Of a stretch of 64,000 nt of DNA, positions 39,153 through 62,306 are shown piece after piece. The notes beneath the pieces were generated by a model. That model was not told the origin of the DNA. It ran no database searches and was given only the letters and a program-made list of their open reading frames with translations. Source of the DNA: Parcubacteria group bacterium Gr01-1014_8 (GTDB taxonomy: Bacteria > Patescibacteriota > Minisyncoccia > Phycocordibacterales > UBA2100); assembly GCA_007376385.1 (NCBI GenBank), contig VMGC01000005.1, positions 119,386-183,385 on the forward strand, given 5' to 3'. How positions within the stretch are numbered: position 1 is the first letter of the stretch; every line of letters begins with the position of its first letter. A program made the position numbers and the translations under genes.

Positions 39153-40169
39153 ATGGCCTTTTCTTTCAGTCCAAAGCTCGGCATTGACCTCGGCACGACG
39201 ACCGTTCTCGTCTTTGTGCCGGGTAAGGGCATCGTATTGAACGAGCCGTCGGTCGTGGCTGTCTCCCAAGAAGAAAACCGCATTCTCGCGGTAGGAAACG
39301 ACGCGAAGGAAATGATAGGCCGAACCCCCGAATCTATCGTCGCGTATCGTCCTATGAAGGACGGCGTGATCGCCAACTACCGCGTAACCGAAGCAATGCT
39401 TCGCTATTTCATACGGAAGGCCCTCGGACGGTGGAATTTGTTCCGTCCCGAAGTAATGGTCAGCGTGCCAGCCGGGGTTTCTTCAACAGAGAGGCGCGCC
39501 GTCGTCGAGGCGGCGACAAAGGCGGGAGCGCGCCACGCATATGTGGTCAAAGAACCTATTCTTGCCGCGATAGGCGCTGGTATTCCTATCCACGAAGCGC
39601 GCGGACACATGATAGTGGACATCGGCGGAGGCACGACCGACGTTGCGGTTATCTCGCTCGGCGGTATCGTTGCGTCCACATCGGTAAAATGTGCGGGCAA
39701 TCGTATTGACCATGCGATAGCGGACTACGTGAAAAAAACATTCAATCTTTCAATTGGCGACAAAATGGCGGAGGAAATAAAAATTCACATCGGCTCTGCC
39801 GTTCCCGTTGATGAGGAATTGACGATGACGGTTAAAGGGCGGGACCATCTTACGGGACTTCCGCGTTCGATAGAACTCGGAACGAACGAAGTCGTACGTG
39901 CGGTGAGCCGTGAGCTTCGCATGATGGTTGGAGCAATTCGCGATGTGTTGCAGGAGACACCGCCAGAGCTCGCATCTGACATCATAGATAACGGCATTAC
40001 GATGACGGGAGGCTCTTCACAGCTTCGTAATCTGACGGAACTTGTATTTCGGCGCACAGGAGTGAAAGCGCGCGTAGCAAAAGATGCCCCATACTGCGTT
40101 GCAAAAGGCACTGGCGAAGCACTCAAACACTTGGACGTCTACAAAAAAGCGATTATCAGTAAACGATAA
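39153..40169 (+). CDS. mreB: rod shape-determining protein MreB (paralog 1, solitary)
   Basis: GIDLGTTTVLVFV, MIVDIGGGTTDVAVISLGG and the actin-fold phosphate loops. 338 aa. Confidence 0.9.
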   Translation: MAFSFSPKLGIDLGTTTVLVFVPGKGIVLNEPSVVAVSQEENRILAVGNDAKEMIGRTPESIVAYRPMKDGVIANYRVTEAMLRYFIRKALGRWNLFRPEVMVSVPAGVSSTERRAVVEAATKAGARHAYVVKEPILAAIGAGIPIHEARGHMIVDIGGGTTDVAVISLGGIVASTSVKCAGNRIDHAIADYVKKTFNLSIGDKMAEEIKIHIGSAVPVDEELTMTVKGRDHLTGLPRSIELGTNEVVRAVSRELRMMVGAIRDVLQETPPELASDIIDNGITMTGGSSQLRNLTELVFRRTGVKARVAKDAPYCVAKGTGEALKHLDVYKKAIISKR

Positions 40170-40300
40170 CGTTGTTGGAGTTTGATGTGGCTCGCCCAGT
40201 TAGAGGCGAAGCTCTCTGATGGGGACAAGAAAGCCATCATTAGCAAACGATAGGGTATCCTACAGGTAGCATCGTGCCCTTTTAGCGAGGGCTATTTGCG

Positions 40301-41686
40301 GTGTTGCCGATGGTCATAGATACAAAACCTTTGGAGGGAAGCCAGGAAGCGCAACTTCAGGCCGCGAAGGCCGTCTTCGACGTACTCGTCGCCAAATTCG
40401 AGCAGCCCGATCCGGAGGATCCGAATGCGGATCATTCGTTGCGCGACTTAGCCGTGCTGAATCCTTCCGACGAGAAGGAAAAATCTCCCGTCGAGAAGCG
40501 CCTATCGACAGAGTATGGTTACATGCCAGCAGAGATACAGTATGTCATTCGTAAGTTGTCCGAGATACGTGCGTTCGTCGATAATAATAAGAACTTCAGA
40601 ACAAAACAAAATCCTAATCCGGATGAGCGTGCGAAATTCTTGAAGGAATCTCTCTTTTTTACTGCGCACGCGGGATATTTGGATTCCGTCATCGCGCGGA
40701 AAAAGTATATTGATTTTCATGCCGAGCTAAGCAAGGACGTTAAGCTGCCGACAACGGAAGCTGAACGATTGCGGAAGGAGATATTCGAACATCTCGACAT
40801 GCTGAAGAGCGACCCGAAATTTCCGGAGGTGAGAATAATAGGTATCCGCGACAATGTAGAAGGTTATATGAAGTCGCTTGAGACGAAGGTGCTGGCTCCG
40901 GGTGTCAAAGACACGCATTCGTATCTTCGCGCGATACTGGGAATTACGACGCAGGCAGTGAATAGCCAGTTCAGCGTCGTAACCACGCCAGAACACGACA
41001 TCGCGACGAGAGCAGATGAAATAAAACATGAGGCTGCGCGTGGTCTTCTGGGAAGAGATACGAAAACAATACAGGCCGATATGGATGCGCAGATGGCAAA
41101 AGATGCCGTCATCGAAAAACTTCCGCTCGGCGTTCGAGTAGAAGGCGTCATGCCCGCAGACCCTGACATATCGTTCGTCATGGTACCTTCGCCATCGAGA
41201 CCAGCTGACTATGCGGTGTCATTTCCGGCAATCCCTCGCATTCGCGTGGCGAATGAACATCGATTGGCCAAGACGCCAGAAGGGCCGATAGAATTTCACA
41301 CGCACGTCACCAAACAAAATACTGTTGAAGAGATACGCGATGCTGCGTACGCGATCATGGAAAAAGAAGTCGGGCTCGTGAAGTTGTCCGCACAACCCGA
41401 GAAAATCGACCAAGGTGGCGATGATGCTTTTGCACGATTAGAGCAGCAGCTTGCGAATGCCTCGATGGTGCAAGTTCCGGACGTAGTGGGGGGAGAAACG
41501 TCTAGTGCCGCGCGTGCGGATGAGAATGCTCTCGATATTGATGAGCTGGAAACAAGATTGGCAAAGCAACTCGAGGAAGCAGTCGGCACATCAGCACCCA
41601 TTGATCGCGGTGACGGAGCCTTGCGGGTAGAAGATGTGGATACTGAAGAACTTATTCGGCGTTTGGACGCTATTATGCAACCATGA
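40301..41686 (+). CDS. hypothetical protein (gene A of the uncharacterised 10-gene block)
   Basis: 461 aa. No motif recognised. 4-nt overlap with the next gene. Confidence 0.45.
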   Translation: MLPMVIDTKPLEGSQEAQLQAAKAVFDVLVAKFEQPDPEDPNADHSLRDLAVLNPSDEKEKSPVEKRLSTEYGYMPAEIQYVIRKLSEIRAFVDNNKNFRTKQNPNPDERAKFLKESLFFTAHAGYLDSVIARKKYIDFHAELSKDVKLPTTEAERLRKEIFEHLDMLKSDPKFPEVRIIGIRDNVEGYMKSLETKVLAPGVKDTHSYLRAILGITTQAVNSQFSVVTTPEHDIATRADEIKHEAARGLLGRDTKTIQADMDAQMAKDAVIEKLPLGVRVEGVMPADPDISFVMVPSPSRPADYAVSFPAIPRIRVANEHRLAKTPEGPIEFHTHVTKQNTVEEIRDAAYAIMEKEVGLVKLSAQPEKIDQGGDDAFARLEQQLANASMVQVPDVVGGETSSAARADENALDIDELETRLAKQLEEAVGTSAPIDRGDGALRVEDVDTEELIRRLDAIMQP

Positions 41687-43785
41687 CCGACATTGGGGGT
41701 ATCAAGCCACCTTTGAAAGAACCAGAAACGCTCGATGATGTGATAGAGCTTGGTAAACCTCTGCGGACTGCGCTTACAGAGATTCTTCGGCGTGAACATG
41801 AGAATCGTTCGCTACCGGATGACGTAAAACGAAAAGCGGAAATAACCGAGGAAATTCGCAAATTAGCCGCGCATAAGGCACGGATCGTTTCCGCGATACC
41901 CACGGAAGAGCCCGCAGACGCAGAAACGGTCGAAACTGATCCACGGCCAGCTGAATCTGCCGGAGCAGCATTTGACCAACAAAAATTTAGAGATGCGGGA
42001 GAAGCATTCAAGCTCGTCGCCAGCGGACTGCATTTTTTTGTTGAACGAAATCTTGGGATGCCGGGTGTGCCCGTTGATGAGTCTCTCGCATCTGCGCTCG
42101 CAAATCCCAGAGGTGAGATTCTTGCAAAAATGAATGCTTTGGGATTGGGCAAGTCTGAGAGTAAACAAGATATGGACACAGTGGGGTTTGCTGCGGTCGC
42201 ATTTGGGCAAGCCCTCGCTATTTTTGGCGGGGACGATGCGCACATATCTGCGGAGCAAATGAAAAGTTTGGAATTAATGAAATTGCCGGAGCGGCTGCAA
42301 CGGCTTGCGAGCGCAATGGGAGTGATTCTCAATAAATATCCGCCTGTTGAGACCCCTGCACCCCAGCGTCCGGAAGCTGTGCCTCCTGTGGCGGCTCCTA
42401 ATATTCAGGATACAGCCGCTGCAGAAGCGTTGGAAGCTCTGAAAGCAGGTCTCGGACCCGCCGCGTCCGCCGCGGATACCCCGTCAAAGAATGGAGATGC
42501 AGCCGGGGGAGGCAGGGGAAGAAGAAAACGTCGAGGAAAAGGCGGAAACGCTCCGCCTGTTGGACCAGAAGCTCGTCCTCCAACAGATGCTCCAGAAAGA
42601 ATCGTTGAACCCGCGCCTGCGGCGAAGCCCAGGAAAGCGGAGCGAAAAGATGGGATAGTTGATGTCGGTCTGAAAAGAGCGGGAGCAGCAATTGCCGGTG
42701 GCTATAGAGGTGTTCAATCATGGCGCGAAACACGGCGGCAAGAAAATGAAGACAAATTATTGCAATCAGACGTTGACGCCAACACCCGTGCCAAATTCAA
42801 TGAACTCCAGAATCTTACAGATAAACACGGTAAGCTCACGTGGTCCGAGGCGGAAATGCGTAATCTGATGCTTGCTGTCGCGAAGATGGGTGAGTTGAAG
42901 CCAGAGGATTGGTGGAAATATCGGCCGTCGCTCTCGGGAGACGAAGCGCGCGCCTTACGCAGAGCACAACTACACTTCAGGAGAATCGACGTGAAGGCAG
43001 CTCGAAAGTTACGAAGTGAAGCTGATACGAAACGGAGAGCAGCAGAAGCTGCAGAATCGAAACGGCTGGAAGATATCGCGGCTCAAAAAAGAAACGTCGA
43101 CCGAATGAACCGGCGGGCTGAGAAAGGGAAGGGAAAATTGTCCCCCGAGGAGGTCGTAGCACTTGGGCAGGCGTGGAAAAGTAGAAAGAAACTTGCCGAT
43201 GGAAGCACATTCACTGAAACAGATGCGCTGAAGTATATGGCCTTGTTCGGAGGTCTATTGGGAAAAGCGGCCGACACGATCATACTCACGGCTGAGAAAC
43301 AAAAAATAATTGACCGTGCTGCTGAAGTGCTATTTCCATTGTGGGAAAAGGAGCGGATTGAAAGACGAGATAAAAGACGCGCTGCGGTCGCCGACGTCGC
43401 TCGCCGAAGCATGGCAGCAACCCGCAGTGGTTTAAGAGGTGCGGTGACCGGAGCGAATACACGGGTTCGAGAACGATGGACCAAGCGACAGGAACGTCAA
43501 CGCGCGGAAGCCGCTAAAAAAACGGCACCGGCTGTAGAAACACCGCTCGCAGTATCTCCTGAAACGGGCAAAGCAGATCTGACGCCTGTCGAGCGCAATG
43601 TTCTTGAAGGGCTGGTCATCGGTGGCAATGTTAAAAGGGCTGACGCGGACGTATTTCTCGCAGTATGGGGTCGCCCCGGCAATAAGGGTGCACCGCAAAG
43701 TGATGTCGAGCGTGCAGCTTTTGATACGGTCAATAAAGCACTTGAGCCTCATCGCAGATACGTGCAGTCGACTCTTACGGCCTAG
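41683..43785 (+). CDS. hypothetical protein, highly charged with a disordered Gly/Arg/Lys/Pro-rich region (gene B)
   Basis: 700 aa. The low-complexity segment GGGRGRRKRRGKGGNAPPVGPEARPP and Lys/Arg/Glu-rich helical stretches. Confidence 0.45.
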   Translation: MTDIGGIKPPLKEPETLDDVIELGKPLRTALTEILRREHENRSLPDDVKRKAEITEEIRKLAAHKARIVSAIPTEEPADAETVETDPRPAESAGAAFDQQKFRDAGEAFKLVASGLHFFVERNLGMPGVPVDESLASALANPRGEILAKMNALGLGKSESKQDMDTVGFAAVAFGQALAIFGGDDAHISAEQMKSLELMKLPERLQRLASAMGVILNKYPPVETPAPQRPEAVPPVAAPNIQDTAAAEALEALKAGLGPAASAADTPSKNGDAAGGGRGRRKRRGKGGNAPPVGPEARPPTDAPERIVEPAPAAKPRKAERKDGIVDVGLKRAGAAIAGGYRGVQSWRETRRQENEDKLLQSDVDANTRAKFNELQNLTDKHGKLTWSEAEMRNLMLAVAKMGELKPEDWWKYRPSLSGDEARALRRAQLHFRRIDVKAARKLRSEADTKRRAAEAAESKRLEDIAAQKRNVDRMNRRAEKGKGKLSPEEVVALGQAWKSRKKLADGSTFTETDALKYMALFGGLLGKAADTIILTAEKQKIIDRAAEVLFPLWEKERIERRDKRRAAVADVARRSMAATRSGLRGAVTGANTRVRERWTKRQERQRAEAAKKTAPAVETPLAVSPETGKADLTPVERNVLEGLVIGGNVKRADADVFLAVWGRPGNKGAPQSDVERAAFDTVNKALEPHRRYVQSTLTA

Positions 43786-43849
43786 ACATATCCACTGCCA
43801 CCTCGACCTCTGCCACCTGAGGTTTGTTTAGTTGTTATTATGAGAGTTC

Positions 43850-45091
43850 ATGACGGACCTGTCCGATGCGCAACGACGGAATGAGCCTATCGTGGAGCTG
43901 GCAAATGCTCCGACCAAAGACATCCGTAATGAAGCGATTTTGATGGCAGTCCAGCGGTCAGGGCATCCACCGGCGAGTTTCGTTGAGATACGCGGCCATA
44001 TTACAAATGCGGCCGAAATGAAGCGTGTGGAACAAACCACTCGCCTTACATCAGGAACAAGTATTCGGCTTGGCGCTATCGTAAACGACGCTACGACTAT
44101 CATTAAGAATGCCCAAAATACGGTGAGAGGAAGACTGCTTCGTGCGTGGGCAAGAGAGATTGCAGAGAGAGCGGGGCCCATCGTAATGTCAAATCGGTTG
44201 AACGATGACATCACAAATGAAGTGTACGCGGCGCTTACAAGCGCTAATCCGCTGCAGACATTGCAAGCTTTTCGCACCAACCCGAATAGCAATGGACTGC
44301 GAAGAGTGTTGGACCCTCGTTGGCAAGCAATAGTAAAGGGCGTCCAACAGTATGAGCCGCGGACCGCGAAAAATTCTATAACGGATAACGGCGAAATTCT
44401 GCAGATCATCCAAAGTTGGCGCACGGCCGGCATACCGATCGGCGGGGTTCACGCGGACCCGTTGCTCGCAACCCTTCCCCGTGATGAGGATAGAGTGCGC
44501 GCAAAAGCGCTGATAAAAGGGAATCAATATCTTGCCAATCTGAAGCCAGAGGATCTCGGCAAGTTATCCGACTCACAGAGGAGTCTTTTGGCTGAATACA
44601 AAGGCTCTTCGACAAGGCGAAAGGGGCAGCTTCGCGGACAATTTGCCGGAATTGCCGCCATCGAAGCAACGGCTGAAGGACGACCTTACGGAAGAGCGGA
44701 AAAAGCACGGGCGAGAGGGGCGGAAGCAGAAAGTGCTGAATTCCTTGCATTGCTTCACTCTGGATATTCCGATGCATCTCCGCCGATACCTGGACTAACG
44801 CAGCCCGAATATGATTGGTATTTGCAGAACAGAGGTGCGCGCGTTCGTGGTCTCTCTGCACGCGCTCCAGCCGGTACGACTGGTCGTTCTATAATGGCGA
44901 AAGTTCAGGCGATCCGTACCGAGCAGGTCAGACGGTCAACACCCCACGCATCGCCTGAATCACCAGCGCGCAGAACAGCTCCCGTAGAGCAACGGGTACC
45001 TGAAGCATCTGCTGCCGGTGCGGACAACTTAAGTAAGCAGGTTGATGCTGAGATCGCAGAGATGCTTAGAAAGTATGGTGGCGCGCAGTAA
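43850..45091 (+). CDS. hypothetical protein (gene C)
   Basis: 413-aa ORF. Confidence 0.45.
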   Translation: MTDLSDAQRRNEPIVELANAPTKDIRNEAILMAVQRSGHPPASFVEIRGHITNAAEMKRVEQTTRLTSGTSIRLGAIVNDATTIIKNAQNTVRGRLLRAWAREIAERAGPIVMSNRLNDDITNEVYAALTSANPLQTLQAFRTNPNSNGLRRVLDPRWQAIVKGVQQYEPRTAKNSITDNGEILQIIQSWRTAGIPIGGVHADPLLATLPRDEDRVRAKALIKGNQYLANLKPEDLGKLSDSQRSLLAEYKGSSTRRKGQLRGQFAGIAAIEATAEGRPYGRAEKARARGAEAESAEFLALLHSGYSDASPPIPGLTQPEYDWYLQNRGARVRGLSARAPAGTTGRSIMAKVQAIRTEQVRRSTPHASPESPARRTAPVEQRVPEASAAGADNLSKQVDAEIAEMLRKYGGAQ

Positions 45092-45111
45092 CCCAGTAGA
45101 AAATATTTGAT

Positions 45112-45912
45112 ATGATTGACCGTAATGCTTTACCAAATGGGATACGAAAACTTGCTATGAGCCTGGATAGACTAGGACCAGCCGGAGGTACACCAGAAGG
45201 GCCGGAGCGAGCGAATCATGAGCTCGAGAAATTCATGCAGCATCTGGCGCTGAAAGAGGGCATCAACGTCAATGACATGCGGCATTACCGCAATAAAGGT
45301 ATGCGGCGCGGCTTTGCCCACGTTCGCGAGACAGGATGGGATGTGGCAAAGTATTTTGTCGGCGGTATAGCGGCTCAACTTATACATAAGCTCGCTGGTA
45401 ATGTAATTGGGGGAATGAACAGTGCCGGTGCAAAAATACCAAAGTTCGTACAAACCGCTTCATTTTTTATACCAGCAATTGCGCTAAGGCGTTACTCCGG
45501 TTTGGTCAATGAGAATCGAGCTGTGCTCGATGCGGCACGAGTGGTGGATAGGGTATGGAAGGACCCAGTTGCCCGTCAGCAGCTCATTGATGCCGTGAGA
45601 GATAATAATACGGGAGAGTTAGATCGTCTCCAAAAAGATAAGGACCACGGTCCAGTGTTTAAAACGATCCGAAAATGGTTGCCACGAACTCTTGCTGGGC
45701 TCTCGGGTATCGGAGTAGCAGCTTCAGGTTATGAAGGACTTGCTTCATTTATCACTACGCTTTACTTGCGACCAGATCTGATGCCTGCCGCGCTCGCCAA
45801 TCTTCCCGTGAAGGGTGTTTCAGAGGTTGGGAAAATGGGTGTGGAGATAGGCGGTCATTTGAAAGATGGAGCCATGGGAATCTGGGGATTCATTTCAAAA
45901 TTTATTAGATAA
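45112..45912 (+). CDS. hypothetical protein with hydrophobic segments (gene D)
   Basis: 266 aa. Two hydrophobic stretches (FFIPAIALRRY…, LAGLSGIGVAASGYEGLASFITTLYL). Confidence 0.45.
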   Translation: MIDRNALPNGIRKLAMSLDRLGPAGGTPEGPERANHELEKFMQHLALKEGINVNDMRHYRNKGMRRGFAHVRETGWDVAKYFVGGIAAQLIHKLAGNVIGGMNSAGAKIPKFVQTASFFIPAIALRRYSGLVNENRAVLDAARVVDRVWKDPVARQQLIDAVRDNNTGELDRLQKDKDHGPVFKTIRKWLPRTLAGLSGIGVAASGYEGLASFITTLYLRPDLMPAALANLPVKGVSEVGKMGVEIGGHLKDGAMGIWGFISKFIR

Positions 45913-45993
45913 CATCTGACTATTATTCAAGAGTGCAATAAAATCGGTGCTATGATGAGGGGCAATGCATCGCACGCGGTGTTTTCATAAAAA

Positions 45994-46377
45994 GTGCATA
46001 TGACAAACAATAAACAGACTTGGGATGAATTTCGGACGATGATTGCGACTGAACTTGGTATTCAGAGCCTTCCGGCGGAAAAACAGGTAGAAATCATTGA
46101 AGAAATTGGTGAGGCTCTGATGGACAGAGTAATTCTTGCCGTGTGGAAAAAAGTCCCGCCGCAAGAACTAGCAAAGATGGCAGAAAAAGCCAAGCGTGAG
46201 GATGATGAAACTGGTTCCGACCCGCGTCGCGCGCTGGAATTCTTACAGCAATATGAACAGTACATTCCAAATTTTGCACAGTTTCTGGATAGCGAAATAC
46301 GCGCAGGGCTTCAAGCGTATCGAGCATTCATGCTCGGTGCGGGCGCCACTCAAACTTCTTCGAAAAAAGCGGCCTAA
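45994..46377 (+). CDS. small helical protein, paralog E1 (divergent member of the E family)
   Basis: 127 aa. Shares the pattern (LG/IGE-L--RV-L-----P-E......Y-P......EIRAG) with E2 and E3. Confidence 0.45.
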   Translation: MHMTNNKQTWDEFRTMIATELGIQSLPAEKQVEIIEEIGEALMDRVILAVWKKVPPQELAKMAEKAKREDDETGSDPRRALEFLQQYEQYIPNFAQFLDSEIRAGLQAYRAFMLGAGATQTSSKKAA

Positions 46378-46392
46378 TGTGGGTCACGTCGT

Positions 46393-48081
46393 ATGATTCG
46401 ACTGTGGCCTCGAGGTGCAGAAAGTGCGACGGCAGCTCCGGAGATGAGTGCGCCTCTTCGCGAACTGAGTAATGTTCTGCAGAGGGGTCGCGGCGGGTCG
46501 CTCGCTGATGCGGCAAGAAATATTGAGAACCGAGCGAGGAATATTTCCAACGTGCAAGGCCCCGAAGCGGAGCAGCTATTGCGAGATAATAATTTGCTTC
46601 GATTGAGAGCTCTTCAGCAAGAGAATCGACTCAATCCGGGGCGTGCGGCGCACATTCAACAGGAAATAAGAGAGATAAATCAAGAAATGGCTGGGTTGAC
46701 GGGAATCGCAGCGACGCCCGCGGGCTCACCCGCGATTGATAATGTCGCCGCAGGACATTCAGACCCGACCGTGCAAGCGCTTGGCGCTCAAATGTCTCGT
46801 ATCGAAGCGATGCTTCGCGGAATGCCGGGCGGCGCAGTCGGAGGAACCGGGATGCACCCCATGTGGATGGCGCATCCGATGTGGTCTGTAGGGGGATACG
46901 GTGGCGCTCCTGGCGGCGGGAGGCCGTATCAACTAGGCGATATCGGGCCTGATGGCACGCCTATTGTTGCGGCTGGAAATGCGCTAAACGAGCAAAGAAT
47001 TCGAGAGATATTTGCAGAAGAGCTGGCGAAACATAAGGCTGCGACCGATGCGCAATTGCAGGCGCAGAATGGAGATCCGAATATCAAACACATCAGTGAA
47101 GGGCTTCAGAAGATCGGAAAGGGTCGATGGTTCCGCGCTGCGTTAGTTGCGGCGGGCATAGCGGGAACAACCGCGATACTTACCGGTTCAGGCGGTTTTG
47201 CAGCACCTGTTGTGCCGTATCTCATGAACGCGTTGCTTGCGTGGGGTGCCTCCAGTACCGTTGCCACTGTAGGAACAGGCGCTGCGGTGGGCGCAGGTGT
47301 GTTCACGCCGCTTTGGGCAATGCGCGGAGTTGGACGCACGATCAAGGCTGATCGAGCTCTGCGAAGAGAATATGGTAACAACATATATGTCTCGGGGAAA
47401 CTGCGTCAGATGTTATTTAAGGAACCGTTTAAGGGCGCACTTCTTGGCGGAGTCATTGGTGCGTTGCTTGGGTATCCGTATCCCGGGGGCAAGACGGGCG
47501 CGGAGTACGTTAAGGGGGGCGCACTAAACGTATGGAAAGATCCTTGGACCCTCTGGACTACGCCAAAGGGCTGGCTCTCGTGGTTATGGTCAAACATTCC
47601 GTGGCCAACCTCTTCTCCCGACTGTCTGCGCTGTTCACCTGGGATACACTTTTCAGCTCTTACTGAGCAACTTAATTTTATTTCTCCCGCCGTCGCTGCA
47701 GAAGCCGCGACAGCAGCCGCGCCAGCTTCTTCATGGCCGGTTTCTCTTGGTTCAGTCGGATTGGGAGCTGCAGGAGGCATGGCTCTCAATAGATTAACTA
47801 CGCCGAAAGCTGCCGCGCTCGATGCCGGAGCAGAAGCAGTGAAATTTACGCCAGAGGCTGTCTGGAAAGATGCGAAGCTAACGCCTGCACAAAAAAATAC
47901 GTTGACAGGATTCGCGAATACGATCATGCCCGGCGAAACGGACATGCGAAAGATAGTAGAAAAAGTCAGCAATCGCGACTTGGGTTCGGATCTGCTGCTC
48001 GCTATCTCAAGGTCCGGATGGTCTCCGCCCGAAATGGAACAAGCGATGATACCCCTGAGGAAACTGCGCAATCCACTTTGA
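46393..48081 (+). CDS. hypothetical membrane-associated protein F1 (coiled-coil N-terminus, Met/Trp-rich segment, Gly-rich hydrophobic helices)
   Basis: 562 aa. GMHPMWMAHPMWSVGGYGG. TM-like RAALVAAGIAGTTAILTGSGGFAAPVVPYLMNALLAWGASSTVATVGTGAAVGAGVF. Confidence 0.45.
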   Translation: MIRLWPRGAESATAAPEMSAPLRELSNVLQRGRGGSLADAARNIENRARNISNVQGPEAEQLLRDNNLLRLRALQQENRLNPGRAAHIQQEIREINQEMAGLTGIAATPAGSPAIDNVAAGHSDPTVQALGAQMSRIEAMLRGMPGGAVGGTGMHPMWMAHPMWSVGGYGGAPGGGRPYQLGDIGPDGTPIVAAGNALNEQRIREIFAEELAKHKAATDAQLQAQNGDPNIKHISEGLQKIGKGRWFRAALVAAGIAGTTAILTGSGGFAAPVVPYLMNALLAWGASSTVATVGTGAAVGAGVFTPLWAMRGVGRTIKADRALRREYGNNIYVSGKLRQMLFKEPFKGALLGGVIGALLGYPYPGGKTGAEYVKGGALNVWKDPWTLWTTPKGWLSWLWSNIPWPTSSPDCLRCSPGIHFSALTEQLNFISPAVAAEAATAAAPASSWPVSLGSVGLGAAGGMALNRLTTPKAAALDAGAEAVKFTPEAVWKDAKLTPAQKNTLTGFANTIMPGETDMRKIVEKVSNRDLGSDLLLAISRSGWSPPEMEQAMIPLRKLRNPL

Positions 48082-48121
48082 TATGCAGGGAAATCAATAT
48101 TAACAGTTATACTTAACACAT

Positions 48122-48469
48122 ATGGACCCACAGCAATTAATGGCACAGGGGAGAGAGATGCTCGTGAAGGAGCTGAACCTTGCGCATTTGACGGAAGAGG
48201 AACAGGACCAGATACTCGACGGGCTCGGGGAGGTGTTGCTCCGCCGCGTACTTTTGAAGATGTTGGAACTAATGCCAGAGAGCGAGCGGGAGAATTTTGG
48301 TAAATTATTTGCCGCGCAAGACGCTGAAGGTATGCAAGCGGTCGTCGTAAAGTACATTCCGAACGCGAACGACGTCATCAAGGCAGAACTTCGCGCGGGA
48401 ATCGACGAACATAAGCGATTGGTTGGAGAAGCCGTCGCGAGAGATGCAGCAAGCGCACCGACTCCATAA
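48122..48469 (+). CDS. small helical protein, paralog E2
   Basis: 115 aa. About 65 percent identity by eye to E3 (PQQLM-QGR-ML--ELNL-HL…ILD-LGEVLL-RVLLK…NFGKLFA-QDA-GMQAVV-KY-P…AELRAGIDEHKRLV). Confidence 0.5.
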   Translation: MDPQQLMAQGREMLVKELNLAHLTEEEQDQILDGLGEVLLRRVLLKMLELMPESERENFGKLFAAQDAEGMQAVVVKYIPNANDVIKAELRAGIDEHKRLVGEAVARDAASAPTP

Positions 48470-48474
48470 GAAAC

Positions 48475-49317
48475 ATGAACGGGCTTGATTCGCCCACAGG
48501 CGATAGGAACTCACACCCCGATCCCGTGATTAGACAACTGATTGAGCAGGCAAATAGGATTGAGGCGCTGGTGCAAGAGCGGATGTCGGGAATGGGGGGC
48601 ATGAGTGCGATGTGGCAGTCTCCCGTAGCATTCCAGAGGGTTAATCAATTCGCGCCAGCAAGTGCGGCTTCACTGCGTGGACAATTGAATACACCGACGA
48701 GGCCGGAAAGCGCCCTCGCAGACATAGCGACCCTGAAACGCGTCGTTGGCGAACAACAGGCGTGGATAGATGCACAGCCGGTGAGAAAACACATTAAAGA
48801 AGGTTTAGAATTGTTGAAGAAAGAGCCAACCACGTGGGGGCGCATCTTGCAAAATACGCTTCTCGTCGCGAGCGGCATCACGTATACGGCGCTCGCTTCC
48901 AAACATCTAACGTCAGGGTTTTCGTTGGCGATGCTTACCGGCCTCGGCATCCCCGCGGCGATTGCGGCCTCTGCTATCGTTGCAGTACTTCCTGCACTTG
49001 CCATCACCGGTCTGAGGGCCAGACGAGCAATACGCGAGGCATCCGACCTTTTGAAACAAAAATATGGACAAGGAGGTAAAGACGTTATCGTCGAAGGAAA
49101 AGGCTGGCGGTTCCTTCGAATGACCGGACGTTCCGCCACAATAGATGTCGTCGTCGCGGCGCTCCTCGTTGGAGGTTTAATGGAAATGAAAATGCCATGG
49201 CTAGGGCCAGATACATCTCCGGCAGATGTGGTGAGGCAAACCGCAGAAACGGTTTGGAAAGGCGCAGGCAATGCAATAAGTACCTTGTGGGGGCTCATCA
49301 TGCGCCGAACGCCATAG
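48475..49317 (+). CDS. hypothetical membrane protein F2
   Basis: 280 aa. A GMGGMSAMWQSP motif resembling F1. 3-4 TM helices. Confidence 0.45.
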   Translation: MNGLDSPTGDRNSHPDPVIRQLIEQANRIEALVQERMSGMGGMSAMWQSPVAFQRVNQFAPASAASLRGQLNTPTRPESALADIATLKRVVGEQQAWIDAQPVRKHIKEGLELLKKEPTTWGRILQNTLLVASGITYTALASKHLTSGFSLAMLTGLGIPAAIAASAIVAVLPALAITGLRARRAIREASDLLKQKYGQGGKDVIVEGKGWRFLRMTGRSATIDVVVAALLVGGLMEMKMPWLGPDTSPADVVRQTAETVWKGAGNAISTLWGLIMRRTP

Positions 49318-49332
49318 AACGGTCATACGTTA

Positions 49333-49692
49333 ATGTATACTCTTTCTATGAACCCTCAACAGTTAATGACACAAGGGCGAGCGATGCTCATTGAAGAGTT
49401 GAACCTGATGCATCTGCCGGAACTTGAGCAAAATGAGATACTCGACCAGCTTGGGGAAGTATTGCTTCAAAGAGTGCTTCTCAAGTTGCTAGACATGCTG
49501 CCGGAGAATGAGCGAGACAATTTTGGAAAACTTTTCGCTTCGCAGGATGCGCAGGGTATGCAGGCGGTTGTCTCAAAATACGTGCCACATGTAGACGAAG
49601 TGATTAGAGCAGAACTTCGCGCAGGAATCGACGAACACAAACGGCTCGTCAATGAAGCCGCAGCAAAGGAAGAAACTGCGCAGGCCGCATAA
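49333..49692 (+). CDS. small helical protein, paralog E3
   Basis: 119 aa. See E2. Confidence 0.5.
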   Translation: MYTLSMNPQQLMTQGRAMLIEELNLMHLPELEQNEILDQLGEVLLQRVLLKLLDMLPENERDNFGKLFASQDAQGMQAVVSKYVPHVDEVIRAELRAGIDEHKRLVNEAAAKEETAQAA

Positions 49693-49698
49693 CGCAGC

Positions 49699-50325
49699 AT
49701 GGACACGCTGCGCGCATCGGGAGCCGAGAAACAAAAAGCCATGGAAGTTGCCGCGCGAGCGGCGTTCGGAGAGCTCGAAGAAAAATTGGCGCAGCTCGGG
49801 AAAGTTTCCGAGGAGGATTTGTGGTCTTACGGTGTCCCCACTGGAGACAGTCGTGATGCGATTCGCAGGCTAGTTGCGATACGAGAAGTTGTTGCGAGAC
49901 ACAAACCGTTAGCCGAGAAACCAGAGCTTTTAGGCAGTGAAGCTGAAAAGTTTGTTCAGTGGTCTTCTACTTTTTCAAACGCTGTCAGTTATCTCAACTA
50001 TTTGCTCGGGAAGCGAGACGATACTGATACATTTCAAGAAAAGCGTAAGGAAGAAAGCGCCAAGTGGACATCGGTAGTGGCAGCGCATCGAGATATCACA
50101 ACTCTATTGAACTCTCTCGCGGAGCAGAAGCTGCAGAAATATTCGGCGGAGACGATACTGGGCCTTTCTCGCAATGCGGAGACGCTTGTCGAAGAAGCGA
50201 GAAACTCCAGCGAACAAAGGGACGGTGCTCTTAAGTCTTTGCAGGATATGTTGGGTGGACTTCGAAAAGACGCGCTTACCGCGCAATACGAACGGGAGCA
50301 CGCAGACGATTTCCCACACATGTAA
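49699..50325 (+). CDS. hypothetical helical protein (gene G, last of the block)
   Basis: 208-aa ORF. Confidence 0.45.
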   Translation: MDTLRASGAEKQKAMEVAARAAFGELEEKLAQLGKVSEEDLWSYGVPTGDSRDAIRRLVAIREVVARHKPLAEKPELLGSEAEKFVQWSSTFSNAVSYLNYLLGKRDDTDTFQEKRKEESAKWTSVVAAHRDITTLLNSLAEQKLQKYSAETILGLSRNAETLVEEARNSSEQRDGALKSLQDMLGGLRKDALTAQYEREHADDFPHM

Positions 50326-50332: not shown

Positions 50333-50881
50333 TTAGAACATCGGCTTTACGTCCTTCGGTTTTTCAGTTCTTTTGAGCTGCTCGACTTCCTCAATTAGTT
50401 TTTGAAGTGTTGATTCGATGCTCACAAGCGTTTCTTTCTGCTGTTCTTTGCGCCTCTCTTCTTCCGCGGCTTCTGCATTTTCTTCTTCGGTCATCTCCTC
50501 GACATCTTCTCCTATTCCCTCAACGTCTTCGCCTATCTCTTCGATGTCTTCCTGCAATTCATCAACGTCTTCCGAGATCTCCTCAACGTCCTCTTGAATT
50601 TCGCCCACGTCTTCCTGGATTTCTTCCACATCCTCCCGCACTTCCGCGATGCTTGCCGCTTGATAGTTAATCGTCATTTGGATGAAAATCGCGAGATAAA
50701 TGGCTTCCAGCGAAACTATTGTCGTAAGCACAAGTAGCATGCGGTCGAGGTTGAGGATGTCGAACCATACCGCGAGGAAGCTTCCCGCAAACAGGATCGT
50801 ATGGATGATGATGGAGGCGGGGGAGCCCACAAAGCGCGTAACGGTCAATGCCGTTTTTTGAATGTCTTTAAATTCGGACAT
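50333..50881 (-). CDS. DUF1003 family membrane protein with a C-terminal acidic tandem repeat
   Basis: LTTIVSLEAIYLAIFIQMTINYQA is the DUF1003 motif. The repeat is (EDVEEIQ/EDVGEIQ/EDVEEIS…) over 7 units, encoded by 24-bp tandem DNA repeats at about 50470-50650. Confidence 0.6.
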   Translation of the reverse strand: MSEFKDIQKTALTVTRFVGSPASIIIHTILFAGSFLAVWFDILNLDRMLLVLTTIVSLEAIYLAIFIQMTINYQAASIAEVREDVEEIQEDVGEIQEDVEEISEDVDELQEDIEEIGEDVEGIGEDVEEMTEEENAEAAEEERRKEQQKETLVSIESTLQKLIEEVEQLKRTEKPKDVKPMF

Positions 50882-52465: not shown

Positions 52466-53200
52466 ATGGCCACTCCAGAGGGAGAACAAAAGAATCCGCC
52501 GGTCCCTAAAGGGGACGAATACTGGAAGAACTATTCCGAGCTTGCGAAAAGAAAACGAGTGATGCCGCGGCTCGATGGAAGACTGGCGTATGATGTCATA
52601 AAGACCGTGCGCGAGATCGAATCTCGGTTGCTGATGTTCCCTGGTTTCGTCGGGATCGGTCCCAGGGGTTCTAGGTGGGATGGATATGCGCTGCCGACTT
52701 CCGACTACGATATCGTGGTTCTCATCGATTCGTCGGCGCCTAATTACAATCCGGCCGTTATGAAAGCGGCCGCATACGATATCCGTGATTCGTGGGCTCC
52801 TGAACAGGGGATACGCATACATTTCGATTTTGAGGACATGGCACGCATCGTTCACGACGATGATCTTACGCGCGTTGGCGTGGGACATTTGCAGACGCTG
52901 GCGGCTCTTGGTGGCGATGTCATCGGACCGAAATTGAAGGAGTATCGGAAAATAGCGCACGACAAATTAGAGAACCTGCCCACAGAGAGACGTGAGAAAT
53001 TGCTCTCCAATGTCGCTGCCTTGCGTCTTGATCAGGAAGATACGCGTTCTACGAGGATCCATGAGCGCATCAATGGCCACGCGTTACAGACATATTCACC
53101 GGCACGAGCCCGAGCAGCCCGCACTCGGCTTTGGGAAAGGAAGATCTTCAAGACCTTTGGCATTCGCGATACATCTTTGCCCGAGAAACCGAAATCATGA
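52466..53200 (+). CDS. minimal nucleotidyltransferase (Pol-beta superfamily) domain protein
   Basis: GSRWDGYALPTSDYDIVVLID matches the hG[GS]x(9-13)DhDhhh motif. It sits between frr and rseP, with a 4-nt overlap with rseP. Confidence 0.55.
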   Translation: MATPEGEQKNPPVPKGDEYWKNYSELAKRKRVMPRLDGRLAYDVIKTVREIESRLLMFPGFVGIGPRGSRWDGYALPTSDYDIVVLIDSSAPNYNPAVMKAAAYDIRDSWAPEQGIRIHFDFEDMARIVHDDDLTRVGVGHLQTLAALGGDVIGPKLKEYRKIAHDKLENLPTERREKLLSNVAALRLDQEDTRSTRIHERINGHALQTYSPARARAARTRLWERKIFKTFGIRDTSLPEKPKS

Positions 53201-54410: not shown

Positions 54411-55667
54411 ATGCGCCAATCTGAACTTTTCACAAAGACAAGAAAACAAGCACCGAAAGACGAGGTATCGAAGAACGCGCAGCTCCTTATTCGTGCCGGA
54501 TTCATCCATAAAGAAATGGCGGGGGCATACTCGCTTCTTCCTCTGGGACTTCGCGTTTTCAATAACATCGTGGGGGTCATCCGCGAAGAGATAAACGCCA
54601 TCGGCGGGCAGGAGATAGTGCTTACGGCTCTTCAAAATCCTGCACATTGGAAAAAGAGCGGGCGATGGAGCGATGATGCCATCGATGTCTGGTTCAAAAC
54701 AGCGTTAAAAGGCGGCGGAGAACTTGGACTCGCAACGACGCATGAAGAGCCCCTCACCGCGCTTATGAGCGAATATGTTTCTTCATACAAAGACCTGCCG
54801 AAATATGTGTATCAATTCCAGACAAAATTCCGCAACGAGCTCCGTGCAAAGAGCGGCATCATGCGCGTTCGCGAATTTGTGATGAAAGATTTGTATTCGT
54901 TCAGCAGGAACGAGAAAGAATTCCGCACATTCTATGAACAGTGCGCAAAAGCATATGAGAAGATTTTCCGGCGAGTAGGGATAGGAGATATAACGTATCG
55001 CACATTCGCCTCGGGCGGCTCATTCTCGAAATTTAGCGACGAGTATCAAATGCTCTGCGACGCAGGCGAGGATGTCATATACGTCAATAAAGCGAGGAAA
55101 TTAGCCGTAAATAAGGAAGTGTACACGGACGATGTTCTTGCCGAACTCGGCATTGCAAAGGCGGACCTGACGGAAGAAAAGGCAATCGAGGTCGGGAATA
55201 TTTTTCCGCTCGGGACTCGTTTTTCGGATGAACTTGGATTGAAATATAAAGATGAAGGAGGCAAAGCAATATCTGTTGTTATGGGCTCTTACGGCATTGG
55301 TCCGGGACGTTTGATGGGAGCAGTTGCGGAAGCGCTTTCTGACGAAAAAGGATTAGTGTGGCCAAAAGAGATAGCGCCGTTCAAGATACACTTGCTTTCG
55401 ATCATCGGAAGCGATGAAACCATACGAGGCGAAGCGGACAAGCTCTACGAGCTGCTCAAGGAAAATGATATTGACGTGTTATACGACGACCGCGACGTCA
55501 GGGCCGGAGAGAAATTTGCAGACGCAGACCTTATCGGAATTCCGACACGATTGGTAATATCAGAAAAAACAGTATCAGCTGGCGGCGCCGAAATGAGCGG
55601 TCGAAAGAATGGCCCCGCGTCTCTTGTCTCTGATAGCGCAGTTATACAAAAAATCAAAGGAGAATAG
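54411..55667 (+). CDS. proS: proline--tRNA ligase (short form without an editing domain)
   Basis: Class II aaRS motifs (FRNELRAKSGIMRVREFVMKDLYSF). An anticodon-binding domain. A C-terminal zinc-binding-like segment absent. The ORF opens at 54375. Confidence 0.9.
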   Translation: MRQSELFTKTRKQAPKDEVSKNAQLLIRAGFIHKEMAGAYSLLPLGLRVFNNIVGVIREEINAIGGQEIVLTALQNPAHWKKSGRWSDDAIDVWFKTALKGGGELGLATTHEEPLTALMSEYVSSYKDLPKYVYQFQTKFRNELRAKSGIMRVREFVMKDLYSFSRNEKEFRTFYEQCAKAYEKIFRRVGIGDITYRTFASGGSFSKFSDEYQMLCDAGEDVIYVNKARKLAVNKEVYTDDVLAELGIAKADLTEEKAIEVGNIFPLGTRFSDELGLKYKDEGGKAISVVMGSYGIGPGRLMGAVAEALSDEKGLVWPKEIAPFKIHLLSIIGSDETIRGEADKLYELLKENDIDVLYDDRDVRAGEKFADADLIGIPTRLVISEKTVSAGGAEMSGRKNGPASLVSDSAVIQKIKGE

Positions 55668-55671
55668 GTGT

Positions 55672-56757
55672 ATGGAACAAGGATTAAGGGCACGGCTGAG
55701 AGCCTGGCGAGAACGCGTCCTCGGACTTTTTTCCAACGATATAGGCATTGACCTCGGCACAGCAAATACGCTTGTGTACGTGAAAGGGCGCGGCATTGTT
55801 ATCAACGAGCCTTCAATAGTTGCAGTCAATCAAAAGACCGGGCAGGTCGTCGCTGTAGGTCAGCAGGCAAAAGACATGCTGGGCCGTACGCCGGCGCATA
55901 TCGCGGCAGTCCAGCCTGTTATAGACGGTGTCATCTCCGATTTTGAAATAACGTCAGAGATGCTTTCATATCTCATCAATAAAGCACAGGAAGGGCACAC
56001 GAAACTGCTCGGTCCCCGCGTGGTGGTAGGTGTTCCATCTGGAATTACATCGGTGGAAGTGCGGGCTGTGCGGGACGCGGCGAAGGCAGCCGGCGCGCGC
56101 GAAGTGCACGTTGTTGAGGAACCGCTTGCGGCGGCAATCGGCATCGAGCTTCCCATTCACGCCGCACGGGGGAGCATGATAGTGGACATTGGCGGGGGTA
56201 CAACTGATATTGGGGTCATTTCACTAGGAGGTCTCGTCACGGCTCGAAATGTGCGCATTGCAGGCGACAAATTCAATTCCGATATTACGACGCACGTTCG
56301 TAATGAATCAAAGATACTTATCGGAGCGAAGACCGCTGAAGAAGTGAAGATAGCCGTTGCGTCTGTGAATAGAAGCGGAACCGCGCTCGAGATCGTTGCT
56401 CGCGGGCGCGATCTCGCGACAGGGCTTCCTCGGGAGATAATCATCACGGACGAAGATATACGGAACGCGATCGGGCATTCTATTGACGAACTGGTCGAGG
56501 CGATAAAAGAGGTTCTTGAATTGACTCCGCCAGAATTGATAGCGGATGTTATGCAAAAGGGCATCTATCTTGCTGGCGGCGGCGCACTCATCCGCGGACT
56601 TCCTGAATTCCTGTCTGCTGCGCTCGGCGTTCCGGTCATTGTCGCCCCTGATCCTCTGACGGCTGTCGTGCGGGGAACAGGCATCGTACTCGATGACATT
56701 GATGCGTATAGGGAAGCGCTCCTCAAAACTGATGATGAACTTGTACCAACGGAATAA
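55672..56757 (+). CDS. mreB: rod shape-determining protein MreB (paralog 2, in the mreBCD-mrdA operon)
   Basis: GIDLGTANTLVYV and MIVDIGGGTTDIGVISLGG. The ORF track start at 55609 is rejected. Confidence 0.9.
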   Translation: MEQGLRARLRAWRERVLGLFSNDIGIDLGTANTLVYVKGRGIVINEPSIVAVNQKTGQVVAVGQQAKDMLGRTPAHIAAVQPVIDGVISDFEITSEMLSYLINKAQEGHTKLLGPRVVVGVPSGITSVEVRAVRDAAKAAGAREVHVVEEPLAAAIGIELPIHAARGSMIVDIGGGTTDIGVISLGGLVTARNVRIAGDKFNSDITTHVRNESKILIGAKTAEEVKIAVASVNRSGTALEIVARGRDLATGLPREIIITDEDIRNAIGHSIDELVEAIKEVLELTPPELIADVMQKGIYLAGGGALIRGLPEFLSAALGVPVIVAPDPLTAVVRGTGIVLDDIDAYREALLKTDDELVPTE

Positions 56758-57544
56758 GTTTAAGATCCGCGCGACGACCAGTAATCCCCGGCAAGGCCTT
56801 CTTGTTGCAACATTCCTTATTCTTGTTGTTATCGGTGCCGATGTATTTATGGATGGAGCGATCCGCTCCCGTATTCGCCCGATGCTCGTGCCAGTTGCAA
56901 GTTTTGGAAGAAGCGCTGTTGCAGCCGTAGCTGGGCAGGATTTCTGGTCGTCCAGGCAGGCGCTTCTTAATGAGAATGAGAGTCTGCGCGAGCGCATCGA
57001 GAAAATGGAGGCGCAGAATGCGGGTTTTGAGGCGCTCCGCGATGACTACGAGGCGCTGCAAAAAATGATGGCGGTCACCGATGAGGAGGGAGAAAAAGGG
57101 CTCATCGCACCTATCGCTTCATCGTTTCGCGCATCACCCTACGGGACATTCATAATCGGTGCGGGTTTTACAAAAGGTGTGCGTGAGGGCGATATTGTTC
57201 TATCCGAAGGCGGGTTTGTTCTGGGCGCCGTGAGTGAAGTGAACGCAAAGAGTTCGCTGGTGCGCATGGTATTTGCTCCAGGACAAAAAACTGAAGTCGT
57301 TTCCGGTTCTACTGGTTTTACCATTTCCGGTCGCGGAGGCGGGAACGCAAGCGCGGAAGTTCCTCGTGAAGCCGCGCTTGCAGAGGGTGCGCCAGTACGT
57401 GCATCGATATATGAGGGCCGGCCCATCGGAATAATCGGGAACATAGAATCTGCGTCGTCGAGCGCATACGCGGAAATTCATGTTGTTTTTCCAATAAATT
57501 TAAATACCGTGCGATACGTATATATCGTGCCTGGAAATGAGTAA
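56732..57544 (+). CDS. mreC: rod shape-determining protein MreC
   Basis: An N-terminal TM segment, a coiled-coil (LLNENESLRERIEKMEAQNAGFEALRDDYEALQ) and a beta-rich C-terminal domain. The start is uncertain, between 56693 and 56735. Confidence 0.75.
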   Translation: MMNLYQRNKFKIRATTSNPRQGLLVATFLILVVIGADVFMDGAIRSRIRPMLVPVASFGRSAVAAVAGQDFWSSRQALLNENESLRERIEKMEAQNAGFEALRDDYEALQKMMAVTDEEGEKGLIAPIASSFRASPYGTFIIGAGFTKGVREGDIVLSEGGFVLGAVSEVNAKSSLVRMVFAPGQKTEVVSGSTGFTISGRGGGNASAEVPREAALAEGAPVRASIYEGRPIGIIGNIESASSSAYAEIHVVFPINLNTVRYVYIVPGNE

Positions 57545-60757: not shown

Positions 60758-60897
60758 CATGCATTATCTTCCGCTGAAGATATGCGCGACCCCGCCTCGT
60801 CCGCCCAAGGCGGACTCCGGCCTTGCGAAGCTGCGCACGCTCGCTTCTCACCCCTCGGAATGGACAATCCTACCTGCCCGTTCGCTGCTTATATCTG

Positions 60898-60969
60898 TGC
60901 TCCCAGTAGGAATCGAACCTACATTACAAGCTTCGGAAGCTTGCGTTCTATCCGTTGAACTATGGGAGC
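60898..60969 (-). tRNA. tRNA-Arg (anticodon CCG)
   Basis: Hand-folded: acceptor GCTCCCA/TGGGAGC, D-arm GTTC-AACGGATA-GAAC, anticodon stem CAAGC/GCTTG, loop TTCCGAA, T-loop TTCGATT. Confidence 0.85.
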
Positions 60970-61004
60970 AGCGACTTCGGGTCCATTGAACGACGGGAGG
61001 TATG

Positions 61005-61075
61005 TGGACCTACGGGGAGTCGGACCCCGACCTCGTCCATGCCATGGACGCGTTCTACCGCTGAACTATAGGCCC
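61005..61075 (-). tRNA. tRNA-Ala (anticodon GGC)
   Basis: Hand-folded: acceptor GGGCCTA with a G3:U70 wobble (the Ala identity element), anticodon loop ATGGCAT, T-stem CGGGG/CCCCG. Confidence 0.8.
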
Positions 61076-61124
61076 CATGTGAAGGACGTGAGAAAGAATA
61101 TACTACTGGCGCGAGAGCGTCCAA

Positions 61125-61358
61125 CTAATCTTCGAGCGGGCACGTGTTTCTGACTATCGCCAAAAAAATGAGTGTACTTACGACAAAAAAAGGAGCGAAA
61201 CTAAGCAATGTGTCACTCGCTGAATGTGATGCGAGATCAAGGCGTCGAAAATAAATGACATTGCCGAGCACCCAAACGATAGTGATGAGCCATGCCTGCC
61301 ACGTAATCGGTTTCCAGCACCATCCGTTGAAGGTCTTTCTAAACCAGTGTTGGTTCAT
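61125..61358 (-). CDS. small 2-TM ORF embedded in the tRNA array (questionable)
   Basis: 77-aa ORF ending 6 nt from the tRNA-Pro 3' end. It is hydrophobic but has no support beyond the ORF. Confidence 0.2.
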   Translation of the reverse strand: MNQHWFRKTFNGWCWKPITWQAWLITIVWVLGNVIYFRRLDLASHSASDTLLSFAPFFVVSTLIFLAIVRNTCPLED

Positions 61359-61363
61359 ATTTT

Positions 61364-61434
61364 TCGGGCTGTCGAGAATCGAACTCGAGCCACATGACCC
61401 CCAGCCATGCGTACTGCCACTATACTACAGCCCG
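61364..61434 (-). tRNA. tRNA-Pro (anticodon GGG)
   Basis: Hand-folded: C1:G72 acceptor CGGGCTG/CAGCCCG, anticodon loop CTGGGGG, T-loop TTCGATT. Confidence 0.8.
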
Positions 61435-61512
61435 GCAAAAAGGCAGGCCTCCAGTCCATCGTCGGGCCGTCTGGTGAGGATGTGGCGACGCACATTCGGA
61501 GAAATTCTTTTG

Positions 61513-61583
61513 TCGGGCCGCCGGGAATCGAACCCGGTCTTTACGAACCCGAATCGTACGTACTACCGGTATACTACGGCCCG
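61513..61583 (-). tRNA. tRNA-Pro (anticodon CGG)
   Basis: Hand-folded: acceptor CGGGCCG/CGGCCCG, anticodon loop TTCGGGT, T-loop TTCGATT. Confidence 0.8.
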
Positions 61584-61744
61584 GTAAAAGAATTTCTCAC
61601 CAACTCGTTCATGCTACCTTATTTACGGCCCGACGATGGACTTGAATGCTGGCCTACAACATACCGTGATTCGTACGGTCTGTTGTTGGAGAATCGTAAC
61701 AGAATCTGTGAATATCTGCACTTCAGAAAGTGCGTGTGGTCACG

Positions 61745-62300: not shown

Positions 62301-62306
62301 ATCTAC

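Follow-up and report, generated by a model that had tools for sequence, protein, structure and literature searches.

Do small paralogous genes that alternate with larger genes in one operon work with the gene in front of them or with the gene behind them? This question is raised by a locus of Parcubacteria group bacterium Gr01-1014_8, on a stretch of 64,000 nucleotides (nt) of contig VMGC01000005.1 (positions 119,386 to 183,385 of the forward strand), which we analysed as a whole and refer to as the window. Three small genes, E1, E2 and E3, stand there at the 3' end of 11 closely spaced + strand genes (39153-50325), which have the order MreB2-A461-B700-C413-D266-E1-F1-E2-F2-E3-G. A preliminary description, made from the sequence alone, had grouped each E gene with the larger gene that follows it (E1-F1, E2-F2, E3-G). 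We find that the E proteins are further members of the catalogued, uncharacterised DUF5663 family, and that the evidence from related loci favours a shifted register, (D,E1)(F1,E2)(F2,E3), where D is D266 and G is a separate conserved gene.

All six open reading frames (ORFs) of the alternating part (E1, F1, E2, F2, E3 and G) are present on the + strand, at the coordinates listed further below. E2 and E3, previously judged by eye to be about 65% identical over their full length, align without gaps over 108 amino acids (aa) with 71% identity and 91% positives (BLASTP with compositional adjustment, E = 5e-51). At the DNA level they are 72% identical across 300 nt, and this repeat is limited to the E coding sequence and excludes the flanking genes. 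The proportion of synonymous differences (pS) between the two genes is saturated at 0.75, while that of nonsynonymous differences (pN) is only 0.17; therefore, the duplication is old and both copies have been under purifying selection, rather than being products of a recent amplification. E1 is more distant, with 26% identity to E2 (E = 1e-10) and 25% to E3 (E = 3e-8) in full-length BLASTP alignments, and a profile of E1-type sequences (E1 and two proteins of L001, one of the related loci, which we denote L001, L002 and so on) aligns with the E2-type profile over 110 columns (hhalign 98.7%, E = 2.9e-16). Judged by these alignments, E1 is a genuine divergent paralog of E2 and E3, as had been supposed. 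Low-complexity similarity is ruled out, since the E-values are composition-adjusted and the E2/E3 alignment is ungapped, and so is the possibility, also raised beforehand, that the E proteins are fragments of a single frameshifted gene, since each spans the full family length (~95-125 aa). Tandem module amplification, as the arrangement had been called, is right in that three paralogs are iterated with larger partner genes, but it is too strong a term for copies that are ancient, and one to three E copies per locus are the usual state in related lineages. E1 is orthologous to L001:5809-6195 (34% identity), E2 is 75% identical to L001:10001-10348, and E2 is identical to the NCBI hypothetical protein G01um10148_1060 of Parcubacteria group bacterium Gr01-1014_8. 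The more likely start of E3 is the ATG at 49348 rather than the ORF opening at 49333, because the resulting N-terminus MNPQQL aligns with MDPQQL of E2.

Against the Pfam model PF18908 (DUF5663), with a gathering threshold of 23.7 bits, E2 and E3 score 28.9 and 26.5 bits, respectively, and the precomputed Pfam annotation of the identical NCBI proteins agrees with this assignment. E1 has no match to PF18908 and is joined to the family by the BLASTP match to E2 and the profile-profile comparison, so that on sequence grounds it is homologous to DUF5663 but beyond the reach of the current Pfam model. The E proteins also agree with the family in length, helical content and stand-alone architecture, as expected of members. 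When 1.84 billion cluster representatives (50%-identity clusters) were searched with a profile, at least 1359 relatives were recovered at E <= 1e-3; nearly all of these stand alone, at 95-125 aa, and in one of them two DUF5663 domains are fused in tandem. The small proteins had been described as helical, which is borne out by an AlphaFold2 (AF2) model of E2 with five helices (mean predicted local distance difference test, pLDDT, 86.8; monomer pTM 0.68). All E proteins examined are acidic (net charge -4 to -12) and lack hydrophobic segments; DUF5663 proteins are presumably cytoplasmic, because they have neither a signal peptide nor a transmembrane segment. All DUF5663 loci that we recovered come from metagenome-assembled genomes of the candidate phyla radiation (CPR; Patescibacteria). 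Pattern scans of genomes and metagenomes with the E alignment returned only four and two loci, the usable pattern being specific to the clade of the window. We found no assigned function and no solved structural relative for DUF5663: a literature search returned no paper mentioning DUF5663 or PF18908, and PDB sequences searched with E and F profiles gave nothing under E = 0.2.

Several features of other family members may be recorded here. Five of them (P0036, P0039, P0051, P0063 and P0111, where P0039 is L020:662-1405) carry disordered Pro/Ala/Thr-rich tails of 80-140 aa with a conserved ..FVV.(D/E)SGEA.P.. element and an invariant C-terminal QPAY that looks like a short linear docking motif. 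In L002-L004, L006, L007, L010, L014 and L020, rpsL-rpsG-fusA is immediately preceded by one or two DUF5663 genes, and the tandem paralogs of L006, L007, L008 and L010, Ea and Eb, fall into two distinct conserved clades. The JGI name 'ATP phosphoribosyltransferase' on the DUF5663 proteins P0018, P0020 and P0021 finds no support in their sequences; it is probably an annotation error, and one that could propagate.

We compared the gene neighbourhoods of about 12 non-redundant loci, comprising close and distant family members that are not phylogenetically independent of each other. By a simple hydrophobicity criterion applied to ten non-redundant loci, a hairpin segment is present in 13 of the 14 genes directly upstream of E, versus 30 of 132 other genes (Fisher p = 3e-7), and two more loci, L021 and L014, also have an upstream hairpin gene. 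We defined a cassette as a DUF5663 gene with a same-strand gene directly upstream whose product carries an internal Gly/Ala-rich stretch of 30-70 aa that is uncharged and flanked by basic residues; in the window, F1-E2 and F2-E3 qualify, and D266-E1 does so weakly. The rule holds in loci where E is only ~25-40% identical to E2 (L002, L007, L008, L016, L018 and L021), and in distant clades a gene of 430-1200 aa with no Pfam match always lies directly upstream of E on the same strand, 8-30 nt away; across all loci the gap from the upstream gene to E is 8-81 nt. The E2-type gene directly follows a gene of the F family in seven of seven cases. E before F occurs only in the window and L001, and in L011 and L013 the genes preceding F abut or overlap it and are not E genes. 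The downstream neighbours of E vary, being F, G, a coiled-coil protein, rpsL, UvrD, SMC_N/AAA, a protein of no recognised type or a gene on the opposite strand, and only 4 of the 13 same-strand downstream genes encode a hairpin, which is near background; all four are in interleaved loci, where they lie upstream of the next E.

The numbers of hairpin and E genes also agree: 3:3 in the window (counting the sub-threshold D266) and in L001, 2:2 in L007 and L008, and 1:1 in L011, L013, L016 and L018, as well as in L005, where the contig ends upstream. The orthologs E1 and L001:5809 each follow a Gly-rich basic protein, D266 and the hairpin protein L001_324, respectively, and E2 groups with L001:10001, an F gene preceding each. 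In L021, L011 and the contigs from JGI and ENA, the gene after E lies on the opposite strand, which leaves the upstream gene as the sole candidate for an operon partner of E. With the upstream gene conserved, the downstream gene variable and F followed by the E2-type gene throughout, the register E1-F1, E2-F2, E3-G is not supported and is probably wrong, and the evidence favours (D,E1)(F1,E2)(F2,E3).

What the upstream proteins (280-1200 aa, all Pfam-less) have in common is an internal stretch of 28-69 aa with no charged residues and 51-64% Gly/Ala/Ser/Thr, usually preceded by a Trp beside Lys/Arg and followed by a basic helix, and both 20-aa flanks of the stretch have a net charge of +2 to +5. 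Such a stretch is long enough for a predicted two-helix membrane hairpin. The positive-inside rule is established for the topology of membrane proteins; with basic flanks on both sides, both termini of the hairpin proteins are therefore predicted to be cytoplasmic. In F1 the uncharged Gly/Ala-rich segment covers 62 aa (residues 249-310) with flanks of +4 and +4, F2 has hydrophobic segments at 145-183 and 217-243 with a downstream flank RARRAIREA carrying +4, and D266 has a GW anchor, then ~50 aa of Gly/Ala-rich sequence and then RRY. Between F1 and F2 there is weak homology (26% identity, E = 5e-6), and both fall into the same jackhmmer family, which in a local search comprises seven genes: F1, F2, L001:8072, L011:7763, L012:2, L013:3240 and L005:58. 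G showed no relationship to F in pairwise comparison. F1 has no match in Pfam, NCBIfam, PHROG or PADLOC, and a search with F1 and F2 of an index of 5.8 billion proteins recovered only the query, candidates being swamped by low-complexity words. F1 (residues ~165-176) and its homolog L001:8072-9958 have a duplicated MHPxWMxHPxWS motif in a Gly-rich region, and the latter protein also has a collagen-like stretch, GPPGPQGPQGLRGFPGDP.

The 11 genes of the operon, all on the + strand, are as follows.

39153-40169, +: MreB2, an MreB paralog of 338 aa and the first gene of the operon (Pfam MreB_Mbl, 3.8e-131).
40301-41686, +: A461, acidic, with an N-terminal G-like domain and no Pfam or NCBIfam match.
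41683-43785, +: B700, basic and Ala/Arg/Lys/Glu-rich, with no family match.
43850-45091, +: C413, basic, with no family match.
45112-45912, +: D266, basic (+13) and Gly-rich, with weak hairpin-like segments; proposed partner of E1.
45994-46377, +: E1, 127 aa, net charge -4, the divergent DUF5663 paralog.
46393-48081, +: F1, 562 aa, basic, with an uncharged Gly/Ala-rich hairpin; proposed partner of E2.
48122-48469, +: E2, 115 aa, net charge -8, DUF5663.
48475-49317, +: F2, 280 aa, a short hairpin protein of the F family; proposed partner of E3.
49348-49692, +: E3, 114 aa from the ATG at 49348 (the ORF opens at 49333), DUF5663.
49699-50325, +: G, 208 aa, acidic, with no Pfam match; the last gene of the operon.

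MreB2 is 46% identical to the canonical MreB of the window (55609-56757), which is followed by mreC (56693-57544) and PBP2 (57804-59597), and it is without the ~40-aa N-terminal extension of the latter MreB. An MreB gene is also the first gene of the syntenic operon in L001 and in the ENA contig ERZ27297570. Between the window and L001, the identity is 97% for MreB2, 79% for rseP, 75% for E2, 73% for frr, 61% for holB and 49% for G, and 31-34% for F, B and E1. The operon therefore mixes highly constrained genes (MreB2 and the E2 type) with very fast-evolving ones (the hairpin proteins and B). However, since the canonical MreB is also highly conserved (91% identical to that of L005), the 97% identity of MreB2 is not exceptional in itself. 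G aligns with residues 11-192 of A461, that is, its N-terminal ~190 residues (hhalign 93.9%, E = 1.5e-7); thus, one domain occurs both in the gene next to MreB2 and in the gene that closes the operon. A461 has a homolog in L011, and B700 has homologs in L001 (31% identity) and L013, while C413 had none among the loci that we fetched. Orthologs of G (41-53% identity) directly follow E in L005 and L013, and that of L001 stands two genes farther downstream. The F-E-G block of L005 adjoins no mreB; a canonical mreB cluster lies ~5 kb downstream, and the contig ends just upstream of F.

The operon is followed on its 3' side by a DUF948-like gene on the opposite strand and then by holB, frr, rseP, proS and the canonical mreB-mreC-pbp2. 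Its GC content (0.51-0.54) is inside the range for the rest of the window (0.45-0.54). Searches of PHROGs, PADLOC and NCBIfam gave no match for any protein of the operon, Pfam gave no toxin or antitoxin match among E, F, D and G, and Rfam gave no match in the operon region; a scan of the operon for promoters and terminators found no more sites than in shuffled sequence. Neither phage GenBank sequences (tblastn with E2) nor IMG/VR (scanned with the E2-type alignment) yielded a DUF5663 match, and comparison of the E2 model with viral folds gave none either. The chromosomal setting of the cassettes is stable, and is neither mobile nor viral. A type II toxin-antitoxin or defence pair was rejected as an identification, as E, F, D and G match no toxin, antitoxin or defence model in PADLOC, PHROGs, Pfam and NCBIfam.

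A few neighbouring features deserve mention. The gene converging on the operon (50333-50881, - strand) encodes a highly acidic DUF948/DUF1003-like membrane protein with 21-nt (7-aa, EDVEEIx-type) tandem repeats; L001, L005, L009, L011/L012 and the contigs from JGI and ENA keep it in this position. In L001, overlapping genes for basic proteins of 88 and 91 aa (L001:12787-13315) separate G from the DUF948 gene; they have no counterpart in the window and could be a small toxin-antitoxin insertion. A probable cell-surface protein of 700 aa, encoded at 33491-35593 (- strand), combines a hydrophobic segment near its N-terminus with thrombospondin type-3 repeats and a PG_binding_1 domain at its C-terminus. 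An ORF of 244 aa with no Pfam match lies between frr and rseP (52466-53200) and overlaps the listed TTG start of rseP (53131); the true start of rseP is probably downstream of this, near 53197, because the alignment with RseP of L001 begins at residue 23 of the window ORF. Six tRNA genes (Arg-CCG, Ala-GGC, Pro-GGG, Pro-CGG, Val-CAC and Ala-CGC) are clustered at 60897-62958, and a tRNA-Asn gene lies at 32672-32744.

We propose that the iterated unit is a two-gene cassette, a membrane-hairpin protein gene followed by a DUF5663 gene, of which the window would hold three. The hairpin protein would insert in the membrane by its Gly/Ala-rich hairpin with both ends in the cytoplasm, and the acidic E protein would bind the basic juxta-membrane part of the hairpin protein encoded upstream of it, forming 1:1 cognate pairs, in which E may be a dedicated partner subunit that stabilises, chaperones or regulates assembly. 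In the lineage of the window, the three pairs may act together with MreB2, A, B, C and G in a membrane or cytoskeletal complex. That each E is the cognate cytoplasmic partner of the hairpin protein encoded just upstream is a proposition to which we give about equal weight for and against; any specific cellular role of the pairs is put forward with far lower confidence. The same holds for a bolder version, which we consider unlikely as a whole: the hairpin-DUF5663 pair would be an undescribed two-component membrane module widespread in CPR, here present in three iterations and drawn, alongside a second, dedicated MreB and five lineage-specific proteins (A, B, C, G and D), into a CPR-specific, actin-linked membrane scaffold. 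Such a scaffold, if true, might serve, for example, cell shape, division or host attachment of these ultra-small cells.

Several observations weigh against this proposal. The small number and the non-independence of the compared loci bear on the upstream rule, and D266, which falls under the hydrophobicity threshold, is the sole exception in the 14-gene count. L002 has two E genes behind a single clear hairpin gene. The partner upstream of E in L021 is acidic overall (-23), so that charge complementarity can only be local. With an HMM of the F core, hairpin proteins from other clades and reversed or shuffled decoys obtained indistinguishable scores; therefore, what is kept across clades is a common architecture, and we do not claim homology of the partners. 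The AF2 model of F2, built from an alignment of two sequences, has a pLDDT of 35, which is too low to use. Finally, the link to MreB is clade-specific, since elsewhere the cassette adjoins rpsL or other housekeeping genes.

Four other explanations have to be weighed beside the pairing of E with its upstream gene. In the preliminary description, E would work with the downstream gene (E1-F1, E2-F2, E3-G) as adaptor plus cargo or chaperone plus effector, and a larger protein was said to begin 5-15 nt after each E. The gaps are indeed 15, 5 and 6 nt, the shortest in this part of the window compared with 81, 40 and 30 nt upstream of E, yet the whole operon is tightly packed; moreover, G lies directly after E in L005 and L013 as in the window, and L001 likewise has an E in front of F. 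However, the downstream neighbour is not conserved across loci, hairpins occur downstream only where loci are interleaved (4/13), F in L011 and L013 has no E in front of it, and the E that precedes F is of the E1 type in the window and of another type in L001. We thus regard the downstream register as distinctly improbable, although a small dedicated partner acting with a larger protein, the adaptor- or chaperone-like idea behind it, is still the best reading of the pairs once the register is changed. It is also rather improbable that DUF5663 is a CPR housekeeping factor independent of its neighbours, for example a translation-associated one, with the hairpin adjacency reflecting operon history. 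Consistent with such a role, DUF5663 lies directly upstream of rpsL-rpsG-fusA in the eight loci named above, and the conservation of the E2 type (75%) is like that of frr (73%) and rseP (79%), whereas its neighbours reach only ~30%. On the other hand, the rpsL linkage is absent in the clade of the window and in L016, L018 and L021, all of which have the upstream hairpin gene, and the copy numbers of E match those of the hairpin genes.

A toxin-antidote or immunity-like arrangement, with F a Gly-zipper protein that permeabilises membranes and E its acidic neutraliser, would account for a small acidic protein adjoining a basic one with Gly-rich membrane helices, and for the fast evolution of F (~30% identity where MreB2 has 97%). 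Yet there is no toxin or antitoxin match in PADLOC, PHROGs or Pfam, the partners have 280-1200 aa, the cassettes lie in stable syntenic housekeeping settings of reduced genomes and not on mobile elements, and phage, IMG/VR and viral-fold searches were without a match, so that we hold this explanation to be highly improbable. Least probable, to the point of being very remote, is that E is an exported substrate of the WXG100/Esx type and the hairpin proteins are parts of its translocon. The size, helical content and paralog pairs of E recall the Esx pairs of monoderm bacteria, and some DUF5663 members carry the conserved C-terminal ..QPAY motif, but E has no WXG100 match at E <= 1, DUF5663 being its only Pfam match, its model has five helices and not a two-helix hairpin, and no FtsK/EssC-type or other ATPase was found in the operon with Pfam and NCBIfam.

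The CPR account for much of bacterial diversity, and the majority of the genes specific to their lineages have yet to be characterised. For the abundant DUF5663 family there is now a concrete hypothesis, a cognate pair with an upstream membrane-hairpin protein in matched copy number, and the corrected register tells which partners to co-express or co-fold. Neither the cassette rule nor the MreB2 operon appears to have been described previously, and the evidence for both comes from genomic context. The second MreB, to which the cassettes are linked in one clade, may offer a way into CPR cell biology. The value of these results is now that of a well-defined target rather than of a discovered mechanism, and nothing in them overturns current understanding.

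Comparison with known systems places the cassettes near several familiar arrangements, although by HMM and, where feasible, fold search they belong to none of them. WXG100/Esx proteins are helical, of ~100 aa, and encoded as adjacent paralogs in monoderm-type bacteria, which resembles the E genes; E differs in having no WXG100 match, in its five helices and in the lack of an EssC/EccC ATPase in the operon. RodZ combines a helical cytoplasmic domain, a basic juxta-membrane segment and a membrane anchor, and is genetically linked to MreB, and an MreB paralog is likewise the first gene of the operon that holds the cassettes in the window clade. However, RodZ is one polypeptide with an Xre-type helix-turn-helix, whereas E has long helices, no helix-turn-helix match in Pfam and no transmembrane segment, and the MreB linkage of the cassettes is restricted to one clade, the canonical mreBC-pbp2 being elsewhere in the window. 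FliS, FliT, FlgN and the class I chaperones are small, acidic, all-helical cytoplasmic proteins encoded beside a larger cognate partner, with several paralogous pairs per locus, which recalls the E proteins. E has no sequence or significant fold similarity to these chaperones of flagellar and type III secretion export (the FliT complex 6ch2 has a Foldseek E of only 3.4), and an identification of E as such a chaperone (FliS, FliT, FlgN or CesT-like) was rejected, with no family HMM or significant fold match. There is also no export apparatus or export ATPase in the operon, and export chaperones serve secreted substrates, whereas the partner of E is a predicted membrane-hairpin protein. In SPFH/flotillin-NfeD systems, a two-gene unit encodes a hairpin-anchored membrane protein with a cytoplasmic bulk and a smaller partner, much as the cassette would; D, F1, F2 and ten partner proteins from other loci have no SPFH or NfeD domain in Pfam, and the partner in the window, E, is soluble and acidic. 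By analogy, then, the nearest functional counterparts of the cassettes may be the gene pairs of export chaperones and their substrates and the operons of a hairpin scaffold and its partner, such as flotillin-NfeD.

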